From NCBI GenBank assembly GCA_017406905.1, contig JAFQXN010000002.1:3501-67500 (forward strand): a DNA stretch of 64,000 nt, in the 5' to 3' direction. The position numbers and the translations under genes were made by a program. This document shows positions 2,890-43,149 of the stretch, one piece after another; the first letter of the stretch is position 1, and each line of letters opens with the position of its first letter. The DNA comes from Candidatus Saccharimonadota bacterium. GTDB taxonomy: Bacteria > Patescibacteriota > Saccharimonadia > Saccharimonadales > Saccharimonadaceae. The notes beneath the pieces are model-generated. The model made no database searches. It saw only the letters and a program-made list of their open reading frames with translations, and had not been told where the DNA came from.

Positions 2890-5523
2890 TTATTGATTTT
2901 GAGATAGCCAGCCGTCCAAAAAGCCCTTCTGAGGCGTCTGGAGCGCGTCTGAGGCCTGTTGCGGGTCGGAAGCGGTAGTTTGCGCGATGTCAATGGGAGA
3001 CGCGTCTAGAGCGCTTCCAGTGGGCTCTGAGAGCGATTTTTCGGGAGCGGTATTTTCTTGTGCGAGCTTGACTTTTTCGGCAGCCGACCAACGGTCATTA
3101 ATTTCCCTTTCTACCTCAGTCCTAGTTTTGCCGTATTTGGTGGCCGAATAGACCTTGAGTGTCTTCATTAGCTCATCATTTGGTTCACCCATGAGAGATA
3201 TATCTGGCAAATTCATTGTGAAAGGCGTGGATGGCATACCAAACATCATTACCTTAGCAATAGCCGCACGATTTGGTGTCTTGGTAAGATCTTCGGCGGT
3301 GAAGGTAGGCGTAAAGGCTTTTACCATCAAATCAGCATCAGTTACGCCAATGCGGCCACAGATAATAGTGCCGACGTTACCAAGGAGGGCTTCCCGGATT
3401 TTCTCGGTGAGTTGAGTCATGAACTGATTCGCAACAATGAGATTGAGGCGATATTTGCGGGCTTCGGAGAGAATAGATTCGAAACTGTCGGTGGCAAAAT
3501 TCTGGAACTCGTCAACATAGAGACAGAAATCTTGGCGCTCACTTTCTGGAATATCCTGGCGGCTCATAGCGGCTTGCTGGAATTTCATTACAAAAATCAT
3601 ACCGAGGAGATTAGCGTTAATATCACCGAGGCGCCCCTTTGAGAGATTAACTAGGAAGATTTTTTTGGTATCCATAATCTCGCGGATATTAAAACCGGAT
3701 TTTACCTGGCCAAGAGTATTTCGCATGATGGTATTAGAGAGGAACGGCCCCCATTTTGAGGCGAACCAGGTGATGACCTCACCGGCGTCGTTGGATTTTT
3801 GAGAGGCCGGAAATTCTTTAGTCCAGTAATCATAGACTGATTTATCTGTGACATATTTGAGTTTGGATTTGACAAATTCTGGATCAGTAAAGCACTGAGG
3901 AATATCAATAAATGTAGCGCCGGCTGGATCTGACATAAGAAGCAAAGCGGCATTGCGGAACATATGTTGGCCACGGGGGCCGAAGAAGCCTTGATTCTGG
4001 GGATCGAAAAGGCTTTGAAGCATAGAAATTCCCTCTTGTACGATGAAATCCTTTTGGTCCGGACTGGTAAATTCGAACATATTCATACCGACAGGATGCT
4101 CAATGTCGGCTGGATCAAAATAAATGACGTCATCGATTCTCTCTTCTGGCACACGTTTAAGAATCGCTTCTACGGCGTCGCCGTGAGGATCGATGAAGGC
4201 AAAGCCGCGACCATCGCACATATCTTGAAAGGCGAGATTCTCAAGGAAGACAGATTTACCCATACCAGTCTGGCCGATGACGTATATGTGACGACGACGA
4301 TCGTCGTTATCGAGATAAATGGCTTTTTTAGAGCCGCGGAACTCGTTAGTGCCAAGGAAGAGGCCTTCGGTGGCAAGACGGGCTGGCCCGTCTACTTGCT
4401 TGGTCAACTGGCGTTCTACCTGGGAGTTTGGTATAGCGTTCTGCTCTGGTAGATGATAAATACTAGCTAATTCTACGCTATTTAGGATGTTGGAATGATT
4501 TTTGATTGGGAAAGTACGGAAGGTGAAATCTAGAGCGAACTTTTTCTGGTCTTTAAGGGCGTTGATTTTGAAACCATTAAACTCAGGTGAATCGAACTGA
4601 GAAAAAGCCGATGCCACACCTCCTAGAATCGCGTCTGAGCGGGGTTTAGACTTAGAGCTGGCAATGATGCGAATTAAGGTTTCGAAGGCCGGAAAACGCA
4701 TTTTGTTGGTGATGGCGGTGATTTCATCCTGTTTGACGCTGGTGATAGTAGTCGTCTGCTCGGTTTTTTCGTGTTCGCCGGGAACTTCCCAGGGGGCGCG
4801 GATAACGTCCATCGCGAAATCACCGATGCTTGCTCCGATAGTTTTTTGTTTTTTCCCTTTCTGCATACTCTCGACGTGTGTTTTAACGCTTTCTGACCAA
4901 CTTTTTTGTGCAGGACGGAATAAAATTTGTACAGCGGCACCTTCGTCTTTGCGCAGGCTAGAAAGTGCGTTTAAAATTGCCATCTGAGCATCACGCTGAG
5001 AGTCTTCGTAGGTAGTAATCGGATAATACGATTCTCTTTTAAGGCTAAGCTCGGCTCCAGATACCGCGCCGATTCCATCACCACCTCTAAAGATGTTGTC
5101 TTCGAGCTTCTCCTCGAGACGGGCGGTGGGATAGGCGGATTGGACGGCCTGCTTAACCGTCTCTGTCAATACTGCGGGCACTACGGCATAGTATTTGATA
5201 AAGCCATCTTTAGCGATGATTTCTAGGGAGAAGTGCCTCTGACCGTAGAGTTTGGTTTTTAGCCCTTTTGTGGCGGTGGAGGCAAGGATAGAGTACATTA
5301 CCTGGGCTTTAGAGATGGCCTCATTGGCGATGTCGCGCTTGTCACGGCCGTTGGCCTCAATGTCATCAGTGGTGGGTGGAAGACGAATCAATAGTGGTAC
5401 CATTTTAAGACTACGTTCGTAGCGTTTAACCTTGCGAAGATTAGAGATTTTAACGGCAAGAATAATGGCAATGAAGACCGACACCGCCACTACAGCAATT
5501 AGGATAACTACCCAGAGCGCCAT
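2890..5523 (-). CDS. VirD4/TraD-like (HerA/FtsK clade) ATPase with N-terminal TM anchor
   Basis: Walker A GQTGMGKS, Walker B LYVDEFQNF, SEARKYRLNLIVANQ, IDPHGD motif, N-terminal hydrophobic helix. Confidence 0.8.
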   Translation of the reverse strand: MALWVVILIAVVAVSVFIAIILAVKISNLRKVKRYERSLKMVPLLIRLPPTTDDIEANGRDKRDIANEAISKAQVMYSILASTATKGLKTKLYGQRHFSLEIIAKDGFIKYYAVVPAVLTETVKQAVQSAYPTARLEEKLEDNIFRGGDGIGAVSGAELSLKRESYYPITTYEDSQRDAQMAILNALSSLRKDEGAAVQILFRPAQKSWSESVKTHVESMQKGKKQKTIGASIGDFAMDVIRAPWEVPGEHEKTEQTTTITSVKQDEITAITNKMRFPAFETLIRIIASSKSKPRSDAILGGVASAFSQFDSPEFNGFKINALKDQKKFALDFTFRTFPIKNHSNILNSVELASIYHLPEQNAIPNSQVERQLTKQVDGPARLATEGLFLGTNEFRGSKKAIYLDNDDRRRHIYVIGQTGMGKSVFLENLAFQDMCDGRGFAFIDPHGDAVEAILKRVPEERIDDVIYFDPADIEHPVGMNMFEFTSPDQKDFIVQEGISMLQSLFDPQNQGFFGPRGQHMFRNAALLLMSDPAGATFIDIPQCFTDPEFVKSKLKYVTDKSVYDYWTKEFPASQKSNDAGEVITWFASKWGPFLSNTIMRNTLGQVKSGFNIREIMDTKKIFLVNLSKGRLGDINANLLGMIFVMKFQQAAMSRQDIPESERQDFCLYVDEFQNFATDSFESILSEARKYRLNLIVANQFMTQLTEKIREALLGNVGTIICGRIGVTDADLMVKAFTPTFTAEDLTKTPNRAAIAKVMMFGMPSTPFTMNLPDISLMGEPNDELMKTLKVYSATKYGKTRTEVEREINDRWSAAEKVKLAQENTAPEKSLSEPTGSALDASPIDIAQTTASDPQQASDALQTPQKGFLDGWLSQNQ

Positions 5524-14043: not shown

Positions 14044-14889
14044 TTATCGTTGTGATATATTTTTAAATACGTCTATGATATATGGGTAAACTTCTTCGAG
14101 CCTAAGCCAATTGATTGATTGATTACGCTTAAACCAAGTCATCTGGCGCTTGGCTAAGTGCCAATCTTCATAAAAACTACGTTCTTTGGCTTCGGACAAA
14201 CTGATTTTGTGATCAAGATAATCCCAGACATATTCGTAAATATTGCTTTTCATGGCTTGGTTATCCCAGCCGTAGGTTTGGACAAGTTTTTTGGTCTCGT
14301 CGTACAAATCTTGATTGAACATTTGGTCAATGCGTTGTTTGAGACGGCTACGTAATTCGGGTGTTTCCCATTTGATGCCAACGATGAGATAGTCGCCTTT
14401 TATCTCTTTACGGTCTGAACAAGTTTTTTGTTCAATGTCACCGATTTTGGCACCAGTCGGGCCTTTGAATTGATAATCGTAGATTAGTGCGTCAATATAA
14501 AGACCGGTGCCACCGACGATAATTGGGATTTTGCCTCTTGACTTGATGTCTTTAATCTTAGACTCCGCGTAAGATTTCCAATCGGCAACAGTGAAACGTT
14601 CGCCTGGCCTAACTAAATCTAGGCCGTAATGAGGGATACCTTGCATTTCTGCTGGCTCAGGTTTGGCAGTACCGATATCCATGCCCTCATAAATGGCGCG
14701 AGAGTCAGCGGAGATAATCTCGCCGCCAATAGCCTGTGCGATTTTAATGGATACACCGGTTTTGCCGGAGCCGGTGGGGCCCAGGATTACTACAACCCGT
14801 TCTCGACGGGTCCTGTCGCCGCCTCCTCCCCAGCGAAAATGTTGCGGGGGTCCCCCTCCGGCGGCACCGCCCATCGATATCAACATCAT
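14044..14889 (-). CDS. miaA: tRNA dimethylallyltransferase (with N-terminal hairpin-element insertion)
   Basis: GPTGSGKT, SADSRAIYEGMDIGTAKP, VGGTGLY, AKRQMTWF. The ATG overlaps the thrS TGA. Confidence 0.93.
   Translation of the reverse strand: MMLISMGGAAGGGPPQHFRWGGGGDRTRRERVVVILGPTGSGKTGVSIKIAQAIGGEIISADSRAIYEGMDIGTAKPEPAEMQGIPHYGLDLVRPGERFTVADWKSYAESKIKDIKSRGKIPIIVGGTGLYIDALIYDYQFKGPTGAKIGDIEQKTCSDRKEIKGDYLIVGIKWETPELRSRLKQRIDQMFNQDLYDETKKLVQTYGWDNQAMKSNIYEYVWDYLDHKISLSEAKERSFYEDWHLAKRQMTWFKRNQSINWLRLEEVYPYIIDVFKNISQR
14796..14874. repeat. GC-rich palindromic element, copy A (in-frame in miaA)
   Basis: Shares GACGGGTCCTG, CCTCCCC and GGGGGkCCCCCTCC with 34266-34359. Confidence 0.75.
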
Positions 14890-19559: not shown

Positions 19560-19801
19560 GGCTGAGTGACCTTGTTTAGTTGATGAGGGCGGGCACATTA
19601 AAAATGGCACCGCAAGGGGTGCTACAACCAAATATATTACGGATTTCGCTCCATAAAACATTTGTTACCTTACGGTGCCAATTATATGTTCCATGAAGCT
19701 CCGTGATATAAAAATCGCGAATCCTTATAATATATTTAATTGTAGCAATTTTATTGTATCACGTTTACGATTTTTTGAGAAGACTAATTTGTGATGATGG
19801 G

Positions 19802-32800: not shown

Positions 32801-35800
32801 TTATAATTTTTCTAATGAGATGGTGATATTTTCGCCGTTGACTTTGGCGATTTCGTCATGAGCGTAGTTAGAGTTTAGCTCAATATTATCAGCGAGAACT
32901 TCAGACTTAATCATATCAAGATGCTCTTCGGGTGGGACAATCGAGAGAGAGAGTTTAATTTTATCACCAGGGGCGAGGCCAGCGTGCTTACGAGCAGATT
33001 GAATGACACGGATGAGCTCACGGGCTTGACCTTCCCTTCTGAGTTCATCGGTAATGGTCTTATCTAGGGTAAATTCATTGGTGTTTTCGACTATTTTGAC
33101 GTTGACTTCGTCAGCGATGATTTGTTCATAAAAACTATCGAGCTTATCACCGTCATAGGTGAGCCTAGAGAGAGGCTGGCGAATTTTAATTTGTTCCTCG
33201 ATGTCGGACTTCTGCATGCGGAGAGCAAGAGCGTCGGTGATGATTTGGCGGGTGCGTGACATTTGCGCTAAAACTTCGGTGTCAATAACGTTCGGTTCTG
33301 GCCAATCCAGAAGATGGACGGAATCGGTGGAGCCAGTGATTTTTTGATAAAGCTCTTCGGCAAGGAATGGAGTAAAGGGAGCAAGAAGTTTGCTGAGATA
33401 AACTAAGACATAGTAAAGAGTAGCGAAGGCTTGTTTTTTATCTGCGGCATCTTTGTTTTTATTGAAGCGGCGGCGTGAACGACGAACAAACCAATTACTC
33501 ATATCATCAATGAACGGTAAAACACCATCTAACGCCCGGGGGATGTTGTACTCTGCCATACCCTCGGTGATTTGCTTTTGCAGCTCATAGATACGAGAGA
33601 CAATCCAGATATCGAGTGGAGAGCTTGAAATGCCTTCATCTCGGGACGGGGTTCTCGCGCCCGTCTTTACGGGGCTCGGCTCCTCGCTGTCTCGGTGGCA
33701 ACCTCCGAAGCGCCCTCGATTGGAGGCATTTTCAAGCTCTTCCGAATCTATGTTTTCAATTTCCGCATATGTCGTGAAGAAGTCGTAGACATTCCAAACC
33801 ATAGCCAATTTACGGTTGATGTCGGAGACGTCTTTATCAAGAAGGGCAAAATCTTCGCCAGAAAGAACCGGTGAGCTAAGCAAGAGAAAGCGAAGGCTAT
33901 CGGCAGAGTATTGATCCATGAGCTCATTAGGATCGGTGTAATTGCCAAGGGATTTGCTCATTTTGCGGCCATCATTCCCCGCTAATGTGCCGGTGGTGAT
34001 GACATTTTTATAGGCATTTTTGGCGCCGTTTTTGGCCTTTTCGCCAAATGCACCGATGCTGGCGAGGGCAGTGTTTACTGCGTGGACGTAGTAGAACCAA
34101 GCGCGAACTTGACCAACATATTCCACAATGAAATCAGCTGGGTAGTTGGATTCGAATTTGGCTTTGTTTTCGAATGGATAGTGGAGTTGAGCAAAAGGCA
34201 TGGAGCCAGATTCGAACCAACAGTCGAGAACTTTCTCGATGCGGGTGAAATGCTCGAGGTGGGCGCCCGTTTCGCTGGACGGGTCCTGCCGGGCATTTTC
34301 CTCCCCCACGTCGCTAACGGCTCCGTGGGGGGCCCCCTCCATGCCCGTCACCCGTCCATGCAAAACATACGCATCAAACTCAACTTCGTCCACCCATGGA
34401 CGATGATAGTCGTCGAGTTTCTTGCCGGAGTATTTTTCTAACTCTTCGTAAGAGCCAATAACAATAGTAGTGCCCTCTTTGGATTTCCAGACTGGCATGG
34501 CGGTAGCCCAGAAACGGTCGCGAGAAAGATTCCAATCTGGTGCTTGTTCAATATTATTGGCAAAGCGGCCGTGCTTGAGATAGGCTGGGAACCAGTTGAT
34601 GTTCTCGTTTTCCTCTAACATCATTTGTTTCTGGCCGTTAATATCGAAAAACCAAGACGGGAAGGCGCGATACATAATGCGTTCTTTGCTGCGGGGATTA
34701 AATGGATATTCATGCTGGATGTATTCAATTTTGTAGATGATGCCCTTCTCTTCGAGGACTTTGGCAATAAATTTGTTGCCGGCCCAGGCTTGAATACCGT
34801 GGTCATCGGTATCGCGGACGCCAAGTGCATGAAGAGTGTCGGCCATTTCTGGGAGATAGTAGCCATTTTCGTCTAGACAATCTACAAAATCAACTTCATA
34901 CTGCTGCGCAAGAGCGTAATCATCTTCACCGTAAGCTGGCGCGATGTGGACAATGCCGGTACCATCGCCGGCGGATACAAAATTACCCGGAAGTACAGAG
35001 TAGGTATCTTTGCGCTGGACTGTACCCTGGTCGCCACGAAAGCCAAGATCATACAAACCATCGGCGACGGAGATGATTGGCTCGTAATGTTTGCCGACGA
35101 GATGGGAGCCTTTGAAAGCTTTTTCTGGCTTTTGGTCTGGGAAAAGGACTTTAGCGCGCTCAAGGGCGACGATTAGTTTATCGCCGTTTACATCGTAGAT
35201 ACCGTAGTCGAGCTCTGGATTGACGGCGAGGCACATATTGGCGGGGAGAGTCCAGGGGGTAGTAGTCCAAGCTAGGAGGTACATAGGGGAGCCGACATGC
35301 GCCAGCTCGCCGCTAGCTAGCTTGAACTTAACATACGCGCTGGGATCGGTGACGGTTTGGTAGGCATCGTTATCCATGGTGACCTCGGCTTTTGATACTG
35401 GAGTTGCGAATTTAGTATCGTACATGAGAACTTTGCGACCTTCGTAAATCTTGCCAGCGTCGTAGAGCTGCTTAAAGGCCCACCAGACTGATTCCATAAA
35501 ATCTTTATTCATGGTGCGGTAACAGTTGTCAAAATCCACCCAGCGACCAATGCGATCGATGGTGCTACGCCAAGTCTCAGAATTTGCAACCATAGATTCG
35601 CGCGCCTTAATGATATAATCCTCTAGGCTCCATTTCGTGCCGATGTCGCGGCGGTCTTTAATGCCGAGCTGTTTTTCGACAAAATTTTCAGCTGGTAAAC
35701 CATGACAGTCCCAACCCCAGCGGCGCTCAACCCTGTAGCCGTTCATAGTCCAATAGCGCGGCACAGCGTCTTTGACGATTGAGCTGAGAAGAGTGCCGTG

Positions 35801-35965
35801 ATGAGGATTGCCAGTGATAAATGGAGGGCCGTCGTAAAAAACATACGATTTATCAATCGGGCGGCTTTCGACCGATTTTTCAAAAGTTTTGTGTTGTTTC
35901 CACCAATTAGCGATGGATTTTTCGTATTCTATAGCCTTTCGGCGCTCTCCAGCTCTATATTTCAT
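32801..35965 (-). CDS. ileS: isoleucine--tRNA ligase (IleRS2-like) with two GC-rich insertions
   Basis: YDGPPFITGNPHHG (HIGH-like), WGWDCHGLP, WTTTPWTLP, GTGIVHIAPAYG, KMSKS. Confidence 0.97.
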   Translation of the reverse strand: MKYRAGERRKAIEYEKSIANWWKQHKTFEKSVESRPIDKSYVFYDGPPFITGNPHHGTLLSSIVKDAVPRYWTMNGYRVERRWGWDCHGLPAENFVEKQLGIKDRRDIGTKWSLEDYIIKARESMVANSETWRSTIDRIGRWVDFDNCYRTMNKDFMESVWWAFKQLYDAGKIYEGRKVLMYDTKFATPVSKAEVTMDNDAYQTVTDPSAYVKFKLASGELAHVGSPMYLLAWTTTPWTLPANMCLAVNPELDYGIYDVNGDKLIVALERAKVLFPDQKPEKAFKGSHLVGKHYEPIISVADGLYDLGFRGDQGTVQRKDTYSVLPGNFVSAGDGTGIVHIAPAYGEDDYALAQQYEVDFVDCLDENGYYLPEMADTLHALGVRDTDDHGIQAWAGNKFIAKVLEEKGIIYKIEYIQHEYPFNPRSKERIMYRAFPSWFFDINGQKQMMLEENENINWFPAYLKHGRFANNIEQAPDWNLSRDRFWATAMPVWKSKEGTTIVIGSYEELEKYSGKKLDDYHRPWVDEVEFDAYVLHGRVTGMEGAPHGAVSDVGEENARQDPSSETGAHLEHFTRIEKVLDCWFESGSMPFAQLHYPFENKAKFESNYPADFIVEYVGQVRAWFYYVHAVNTALASIGAFGEKAKNGAKNAYKNVITTGTLAGNDGRKMSKSLGNYTDPNELMDQYSADSLRFLLLSSPVLSGEDFALLDKDVSDINRKLAMVWNVYDFFTTYAEIENIDSEELENASNRGRFGGCHRDSEEPSPVKTGARTPSRDEGISSSPLDIWIVSRIYELQKQITEGMAEYNIPRALDGVLPFIDDMSNWFVRRSRRRFNKNKDAADKKQAFATLYYVLVYLSKLLAPFTPFLAEELYQKITGSTDSVHLLDWPEPNVIDTEVLAQMSRTRQIITDALALRMQKSDIEEQIKIRQPLSRLTYDGDKLDSFYEQIIADEVNVKIVENTNEFTLDKTITDELRREGQARELIRVIQSARKHAGLAPGDKIKLSLSIVPPEEHLDMIKSEVLADNIELNSNYAHDEIAKVNGENITISLEKL
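33621..33739. repeat. hairpin/cloverleaf element in-frame in ileS (copy C, diverged)
   Basis: Terminal inverted repeat GAGCTTGAAATGCC / GGCATTTTCAAGCTC encloses internal hairpins. Confidence 0.7.
34266..34359. repeat. GC-rich palindromic element, copy B (in-frame in ileS)
   Basis: Nested stems TGGACGGGT/ACCCGTCCA, GGGCAT/ATGCCC, CCCCACG/CGTGGGG. Homologous to the miaA copy. Confidence 0.8.
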
Positions 35966-41901: not shown

Positions 41902-43149
41902 TTAAAATTTGGAAAAAATCTTTTTAATGAGGCCAACAGGGCCCGAGCCAGATTTGGGTGTTTTGGCAGATTTGGAGGATTTTTTGCTGGTGGGAGCAGT
42001 ATATTGAGCAGATTCTGCGGCGAGCATGGCTAGACCAGCTGCGGCGGCAAATTCGGGCTTTTCGATGGCGTCGGAAACTCCTCCGAGGCCTTTGGGTGTG
42101 CCAATTTTGACGGCTGCTTCGAGGGATTTTTTGGCGAATAAATCTATGTCGCGCATTTTAGCCCCACCACCGACTAAAACGATGCCCTCGGGGAGACGCT
42201 GATCGTACTTGGCGGATTTGAGTTTTTTACGAATTTCGCCAAAAATTTCATCGAGGCGAGCTTTGACAACTTCTTCTACTTCTTTGCGGTCAAAGACTCT
42301 TTCGTCTTTACCTTCCCTGCCGATTTTGATGACTGGGCTTTTGTCGGTATCGAAATTACCGGTAACGAAACGAGTTTTGATTTCTTCAGCAAGACCAGGA
42401 TCGATAGCGAGAACGATGGCGAGATCGTTCGTGATATTGTTTGAGCCGGCTGGCACAACGCCCACATATTGCAAATCACCTTCTTCGTAGACTGCAACTG
42501 AAGTGGTGGCGGCACCAAAATCTACAACGGCAACGCCGTTTTCTTTTTGACGCTCGGTAAGGACGGCCTTGGCAGCAGCTACAACGCTAGGAATGAGCCT
42601 TTCGGCGTGGACATCAGCGGCAGAGGTGGCTTTTTTGAGATTTTCACAATTTGGAGTGAGTGCCGAGATAACATTGGCGCGCATCTCTAGGCGTGCACCG
42701 GACATGCCGAGCGGATCCTTAATCCCTCCTTGCCCGTCAAGAGCGTATTCTAGTGGAACTACATCCAAAACATCGCGATTGGCTGGAATGCGGCCAGATA
42801 CGGCTACTCCTTCTACTCTGTCTAAATCTTCGTCGTTAATCTCGTGTTCTACCGTACCGACGGCAATCATACCTTCGGTATGAGTAGAAATGACGGTGGA
42901 GCCATTAATAGAAACATAGGCTGAGCGCACATCATAGCCACCCATACGTTCTGCATCGCCGAGCATTTGGTCGATAGAACCGGCTGGGCCAGCAAGATTG
43001 GCTGGTACACCTTTGCGCATACCGGCGGATTTACCTTCATTGTAGCCGACGATGGCAATTTCGCCGCTTTTATTAACACTGGCAATCACGGCACGGACGT
43101 TTTCTGTGCCTACGTCGAGACCTGTAACAAAACGATTATCGTTATCCAT
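41902..43149 (-). CDS. ftsA: cell division protein FtsA
   Basis: GLDVGTENV, VVDFGAATT, LVGGGAKM. Confidence 0.95.
   Translation of the reverse strand: MDNDNRFVTGLDVGTENVRAVIASVNKSGEIAIVGYNEGKSAGMRKGVPANLAGPAGSIDQMLGDAERMGGYDVRSAYVSINGSTVISTHTEGMIAVGTVEHEINDEDLDRVEGVAVSGRIPANRDVLDVVPLEYALDGQGGIKDPLGMSGARLEMRANVISALTPNCENLKKATSAADVHAERLIPSVVAAAKAVLTERQKENGVAVVDFGAATTSVAVYEEGDLQYVGVVPAGSNNITNDLAIVLAIDPGLAEEIKTRFVTGNFDTDKSPVIKIGREGKDERVFDRKEVEEVVKARLDEIFGEIRKKLKSAKYDQRLPEGIVLVGGGAKMRDIDLFAKKSLEAAVKIGTPKGLGGVSDAIEKPEFAAAAGLAMLAAESAQYTAPTSKKSSKSAKTPKSGSGPVGLIKKIFSKF

Follow-up and report, generated by a model that had tools for sequence, protein, structure and literature searches.

Families of Rickettsia palindromic elements (RPEs), described by Ogata et al. 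in 2000 and 2002 and summarised in PMC10969869, each encode a conserved peptide. The same summary covers bacterial transposable elements of the miniature inverted-repeat type (MITEs) that lie inside genes, such as ERIC, BOX, Correia, Nezha and QMITE1. In-frame selfish palindromes have so far been treated as a curiosity of Rickettsia. Also relevant is quasi-palindrome correction, a mutational mechanism established in E. coli and phage that works through template switching at replication: an imperfect inverted repeat is perfected by copying one arm from the other with no change in length. Here we analysed a palindromic insertion at positions 33621-33739 of a 64,000-nucleotide stretch of Saccharibacteria DNA (the window), which had been flagged in a preliminary description and lies inside ileS, the gene for isoleucyl-tRNA synthetase (IleRS). 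Our main conclusion, to which we assign a probability of about 0.7, is that the flagged stretch belongs, as a single copy, to a selfish DNA repeat that is non-autonomous and lineage-specific and that we call family A. On the best reading, its closest kind is a selfish, translated-through palindromic element akin to RPEs. Literature searches returned no publication on elements of this kind, whether in Saccharibacteria or in the wider Candidate Phyla Radiation, and the flagged element is apparently an ordinary member of an unusual, unpublished system.

A repeat family of one genus inside coding sequence

The genome carrying the window (G000) consists of 13 contigs totalling 585 kb, with a completeness of 90%. 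Its ileS product matches the solved IleRS 1ILE, orthologues of the gene were recovered in 31 of 31 relatives, and the reading frame stays open across both of the insertions that it carries. The close IleRS relatives come from Candidatus Saccharibacteria / Ca. Nanosyncoccus of goat, sheep, yak and buffalo gut. With a GC content of 0.61, the flagged stretch stands out as a GC island from the genome, whose mean is ~0.45. As the preliminary description had stated, it is bounded by a 14/15 terminal inverted repeat (TIR; plus strand GAGCTTGAAATGCC at 33621-33634 and GGCATTTTCAAGCTC at 33725-33739), and the quoted insertion peptide is indeed encoded there and missing from most orthologues. Alignment of the orthologues bore out an insertion after the KMSKS region of IleRS, being interrupted at residues ~746-780 in 30 relatives. 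What these relatives carry at the site is either nothing or another hairpin element, and not a conserved protein loop devoid of nucleotide symmetry. The palindromic symmetry of the insertion at the nucleotide level and its membership of a dispersed repeat system were likewise upheld. Its two strands fold at -56.6 and -63.2 kcal/mol (z ~-4.2), which none of 200 dinucleotide shuffles equalled.

Family A consists of a GC-rich core of ~82 nt with short TIRs and a conserved apical hairpin, enclosed by a closing stem that differs between copies. A profile of the core recovered 35 copies in 1.2 Mb of loci. When 23 copies were aligned (alignment A1), the consensus was a Y-shaped fold of 27 pairs, 20 of them with compensatory changes. 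Paired cells amounted to 88.1%, compared with 71.1% in shuffles, and double-change cells to 111, compared with 36. The covariation score was 0.47, which none of 500 shuffles reached (0.18 in shuffles), and controls with slid partners gave at most 0.20. Compensatory changes were found in the pairs flanking the apical hairpin across the 23 copies, the region of the second side hairpin was variable, and the core ends, TCGAGGGG ... CCCCGAGA, were conserved throughout the alignment, which gives the family the shared TIRs expected of a MITE. A covariance model (R1) detected family A in 56 of 61 Ca. Nanosyncoccus genomes, with copy numbers of 0-33 per genome across the genus. Outside the genus, 119 genomes representing 97 further genera of the order yielded no copy (E 1e-5). 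The flagged element is the sole copy in the window by this model and one of three in G000, the others being in truB and polA.

All 32 family A copies examined in five congeners and G000 lie inside open reading frames (ORFs), of 158-852 aa. They are oriented sense (22 copies) or antisense (10) to the host gene, and all three frames are used, without stops. Since every frame and both orientations are in use, the family is conserved at the nucleotide level and the peptides differ; neither a fixed reading frame nor a conserved peptide was found, and three sense and three antisense registers occur. Host genes include truB, polA, queA, leuS, femAB and many others. In G000, four hairpin families (A-D) together have at least 23 copies, 20 of them in ORFs, and their hosts are housekeeping genes, encoding IleRS, leucyl-tRNA synthetase (LeuRS), FtsJ, TsaD, TruB, PolA, QueA, UvrD, RarA and FemAB. 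The insertions stand in frame in unrelated protein-coding genes and do not disrupt them. Because the frame is kept free of stops in many independent states, the inserts are probably translated. The flagged copy is most likely read through as a 32-residue hydrophilic loop that the enzyme would tolerate.

The rRNA genes of this radiation are known to contain intervening sequences, and an insert of this sort might be removed after transcription or translation, as a mini-intron or intein-like segment, to leave a mature enzyme without it. We consider this very unlikely. All copies examined keep the host frame and lack a stop in six reading registers, which would be needless if they were removed, and net lengths are multiples of three. 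Furthermore, no known intron family was matched, and 32 residues fall far below the size of an intein.

A different role had been proposed in the preliminary description, which drew the element as a cloverleaf with three internal hairpins and speculated that a tRNA-shaped RNA in a synthetase mRNA might be regulatory. The consensus fold is instead a long Y-shaped hairpin. ARAGORN detected 0 tRNA genes, and an Rfam scan of the element assigned no family, its best matches being chance microRNAs far below threshold. Of the hairpins proposed, GGGGC/GCTCC joins two strings that are not complementary, and GACGGG/CCCGTC competes with the family-conserved hairpin CCCGT-CTTTA-CGGGG at 33660-33674. A functional structured RNA in the ileS mRNA, tRNA-like or other, that regulates synthetase expression would agree with the very stable fold and the strong covariation, and a variant in another metagenome, 33626 T>C, would still pair as G-U on the mRNA strand. 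We nevertheless hold such an RNA to be very improbable as well. The same element occurs in many unrelated genes, in both orientations and all frames, and 10 of 32 copies are antisense; most congeners either lack family A at the ileS site or carry unrelated elements there. One and the same strand of the element folds better as RNA in all 10 antisense copies and in 17 of the 20 sense copies compared. This constancy in both orientations indicates that the polarity belongs to the element and not to the host mRNA, and in the flagged copy it is the mRNA strand that is less stable.

The ileS linker and the overlap of stem and native codons

From contigs of genomes and metagenomes we gathered the linker between NVYDFF and LDxWI of ~150 distinct ileS alleles. 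A linker of 31-36 aa with essentially no structure (about -2 to -16 kcal/mol) is found in 64 alleles, whereas the linkers of occupied alleles measure 56-89 aa and fold strongly (-44 to -99 kcal/mol). The occupants represent at least six unrelated core families. Family A is among them, in two of the sense frames and, in one case, in reverse orientation; also present are the first ileS insertion's family and a long hairpin family of 126 nt, together with nested forms and with internally deleted forms that keep the outer stem; in two of the last (L105 and L223) the outer arms are identical to those of G000. In the Thermus thermophilus structure 1ILE the site is an 11-residue linker between two helices (residues 663-675). 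The linker varies in length among IleRS proteins and leads from the last helix of the catalytic domain to the anticodon-binding domain's first helix. The pattern seen at this linker recurs at another loop of IleRS (YVKFK...LLAWTTTPW) and at a loop of LeuRS.

The insertion had been put at 119 nt, which is not a multiple of three. We compared G000 codon by codon with the closest empty alleles (L210, L211 and L214, 93-94% identical upstream). These read D-S-D-D-L-K-L-x-L-x-N-P, 12 codons of which 7 precede and 5 follow the inserted unit, and G000 reads D-S-E-E-L-E-N, then 32 added codons, then I-S-S-S-P. Because codons of the empty alleles map to both sides of it, the net insertion is 96 nt (33632-33727). 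The coordinates of all features are collected in the table.

Table. Features of the flagged ileS copy and its surroundings (window positions)
Feature	Position	Strand	Details	Basis
ileS, isoleucyl-tRNA synthetase	32801..35965	-	1054 aa	ORF list and translation
Net inserted unit	33632..33727	-	96 nt, 32 codons, residues 747-778 (ASNRGRF...SRDEG)	Codon-level comparison, ortholog alignment
Family A core	33638..33718	-	Sequence profile match	nhmmer E 1e-15 to 3e-20, alignment A1
Family-level short TIRs	33638-33645, 33713-33720	+	Sense ATCGAGGG ... CCCGAGAT	Alignment A1
Whole hairpin	33617..33742	-	End-to-end match of covariance model R1	cmsearch 91.3 bits, E 4e-21
Outer-stem arm, gene 3' side	33617..33631	-	Sense ATTTCAAGCTCTCC, codons I-S-S-S	
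Outer-stem arm, gene 5' side	33728..33742	-	Sense GAAGAGCTTGAAAAT, codons E-E-L-E-N	
Conserved apical hairpin of family A	33660..33674	-	Sense CCCCGT-AAAG-ACGGG	5 pairs (nearly) invariant
Variable second side hairpin of the Y fold	33691..33710	-	Sense CTTCGGAGG..CCACCGAG	Minimum-free-energy folds
Other ileS insertion, unrelated family B	34274..34355	-	Against the flagged element, z -0.4	nhmmer census

The hairpin of the flagged copy is longer than what was inserted: 126 nt against 96 nt, an excess of ~30 nt. The excess is made of native codon positions. The arm on the 5' side of the gene lies on the D-D-L-K-L positions of the empty alleles and is still conservative (E-E-L-E for D-D-L-K), and the arm on the 3' side takes positions that read V/N-L-N/K-N in empty alleles and are here rewritten as the reverse complement. 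In the eight non-nested family A alleles at the ileS site, the hairpin exceeds the net insertion by 19-53 nt. Such a difference is the signature expected of hairpin-templated (quasi-palindrome) correction, and it may reflect that mechanism. The idea that both arms are extra DNA brought by the element was dropped after the comparison with the closest empty alleles. We favour repeated insertion into one and the same native sequence over swapping of cores inside persistent arms, since what the arms share is a conserved native codon string. In one empty allele, L211 from a metagenome contig, the exact insertion point coincides with a perfect palindrome of 9 bp around a 2-nt spacer, ATTTAAAAC-TA-GTTTTAAAT, which could be either a preferred target or an excision footprint.

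Several further observations concern these sites. At the same ileS site of a congener (L093:3233-3361), a family A element with its own stem is nested in the right half of a long-hairpin element. The second IleRS hot spot lies at window positions 35252-35335 (residues 211-238), where G000 has 28 aa with the GC-rich sequence LASGELAHVGSPMY and minimal alleles have 19-21 aa; perhaps G000 has lost an element here and its loop is what remains. In congeners this loop is occupied by families A, C and D and the long hairpin family. LeuRS ORFs (L031, loci L042-L070) range from 754 to 1049 aa across the genus, with extra segments at no fewer than three sites (near G000 residues 250, 375 and 630). G000 is occupied only at residue 630, by family C.

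The flagged element had also been likened to an insertion in miaA. This likeness does not exceed chance (z 1.7), since 21 of 300 shuffles scored equally well. The miaA insertion, at window positions 14800-14873, belongs to family B and is related to the first ileS insertion (z 7.7). Family B has 7 copies in G000, one of which is outside any long ORF (G000 C9:221392-221467). Elsewhere in the window, positions 42116-42257 and 19620-19747 hold inverted-repeat pairs with arms of 20-23 nt set ~90 nt apart, whose interiors are not GC-rich.

Private stems and possible routes of spread

In one congener, identical cores occur at five loci, where ~10 nt of the inner stem is common to the copies and the outermost 4-10 bp are private. 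The common inner stem indicates that more than the core travels and that the outer part is local; of the stem extending the core, one part is inherited within a subfamily and the other belongs to the locus alone. Duplexes formed flank to flank within a copy reached -28.6 kcal/mol, compared with -12.9 +/- 4.8 between copies. When 13 private arms were compared with the genome by BLAST, each matched only itself and its own partner, indicating that the arms were not copied from elsewhere. Identical cores with different outer stems in one genome point to recent activity or to homogenisation.

The mechanism that we prefer is tentative. A strand-specific hairpin of single-stranded DNA would serve as the intermediate and be copied at replication, after which the stem would be lengthened by hairpin-templated correction overwriting the adjacent codons; a dedicated transposase would not be involved. 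Possible, and slightly more doubtful, is a fuller version, a transposase-free mobile DNA whose hairpin is copied at replication into short native palindromes of permissive loops and then rewrites host codons into its stem. If this were true, changes in the DNA would keep writing, swapping and erasing the loops of essential enzymes.

Several points weigh against a selfish repeat of this kind. The precise excision considered at the outset was not recovered: contigs of four DNA metagenome runs from four studies contained no clean empty joint from which the element had been removed, and neither insertion nor excision was seen directly. No direct repeat marking a target-site duplication was found at the junctions of the flagged copy by comparison with empty alleles. 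The antisense strand of this copy is slightly more stable than its sense strand, contrary to the trend of the family. Identical cores in one genome could come from gene conversion and not from recent transposition. In 26 of 32 copies, whatever the orientation of the gene, the locally C-rich strand is also the better-folding one. This speaks for the selfish reading and hints at a preference for one replication strand, but GC skew is an indirect proxy for replication direction and the related genomes are not independent samples. Finally, a search of G000 restricted to four transposase families, Y1_Tnp (PF01797), TnpB, DDE_Tnp_1 and rve, found none of them in this 90% complete genome (control genomes did match PF01797), so that we infer mobility only from the distribution of copies.

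These results bear on whether the element is an ordinary MITE, moved in trans by a transposase whose gene lies in the 10% of the genome missing from the assembly or on a phage or plasmid, or which belongs to a family other than the four searched, with the private stems being fast-diverging TIRs. Short TIRs do exist at the level of the family, species differ in copy number (0 to 33), and the ~10 nt of inner stem common to subfamily copies means that more than the core moves. We still regard this explanation as unlikely, though much less so than a removed sequence or a regulatory RNA. The flagged copy has neither a target-site duplication nor a cognate transposase among the four major families searched in G000, its outer stem occupies native codon positions and adds no length, unrelated core families recur at the same sites, and there is a strand bias.

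Reverse transcriptases were also considered as the engine of the hairpins. G000 has three such genes (RVT_1), each preceded by an ORF of no known family. Beside one of them, outside the window, is a 241-nt template repeat matched by a variable repeat in an ORF of 554 aa, at its 3' end (L172:3563-3803 and 4154-4394; G000 C9 ~201060-201890), and all mismatches between the two fall at template adenines. This adenine-specific pattern identifies the locus as a diversity-generating retroelement. Reverse transcriptases were rejected as the engine, one being clearly of this kind and no link to the hairpins having been found.

Metagenome data gave additional observations on the locus. Other contigs from sheep and cattle gut carry either the element with few substitutions or diverged relatives of it. 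A search of metagenomes for a near-identical strain with an empty ileS site returned only alleles <=94% identical. Two joints, 33382>33774 and 33385>33641, were set aside; they have short sides and low likeness and are probably from other organisms. In three gut metagenome runs (X5, X10 and X11), depth at the cores 33628-33709 and 34284-34365 was up to 10-fold above that of the flanks, consistent with many copies of the cores in co-resident organisms.

Comparison with described repeat systems

An independent and very active system in Saccharibacteria, in which several families take part and a single family reaches as many as 33 copies in a 0.7-Mb genome, would show that reduced genomes of host-dependent bacteria repeatedly evolve parasites hidden in essential proteins. 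The system explains the GC-rich "insertions" and the split domain hits that annotation of these genomes produces. It also offers evolutionary study a natural experiment on the tolerance of enzymes for loops of 30-40 residues and on the remodelling of neighbouring codons by a hairpin. The dense series of presence and absence at single sites, such as the ~150 distinct ileS alleles, makes the mechanism of insertion directly testable.

Family A resembles MITEs in being a non-autonomous short repeat with TIRs and hairpin potential, and some MITEs also make in-frame fusions. MITEs, however, are defined by target-site duplications and a cognate insertion sequence (IS) transposase, neither of which was found here. 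They are also mostly intergenic, whereas 20 of 23 hairpin copies in G000 and 32 of 32 family A copies, those of the congeners included, lie in ORFs. With the REP/REPIN system (mobilised by RAYT, a Y1/HUH transposase) and with IS200/IS605 elements, these repeats share DNA hairpins of one strand, a bias of strand or replication, and the lack of target duplication. In contrast, REPINs are extragenic and have no private stems, and the search with PF01797 found no Y1_Tnp gene, and hence no RAYT, in G000. The likeness to quasi-palindrome correction is that the outer stem of the flagged copy replaces native codons one for one. That correction, however, is a mutational process and not a family of elements, and it explains the growth of a stem but not the arrival of a core at a new locus.

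The closest resemblance is to RPEs. Both are small palindromic dispersed repeats (about 100-150 bp) of several families, found in the reduced genome of a host-dependent bacterium, with no known transposase, and in frame in unrelated housekeeping genes that they do not break and to which they presumably add surface peptide segments. The flagged element fits this description in its length of 119-126 nt, its folding z of -4.2 and a covariation far above controls, as do families A-D in their dispersal through G000. The two systems differ in that Saccharibacteria belong to an unrelated phylum and family A is confined to one genus of them, and this restriction makes common descent with RPEs unlikely. 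Unlike RPEs, family A has no fixed frame and is read in all frames and both orientations, and its outer stems are private to the locus and laid over native codons. Moreover, the Saccharibacteria elements reuse hot-spot sites, where several families insert and nest in one another, and they are strand-biased and GC-rich in a genome of 45% GC.

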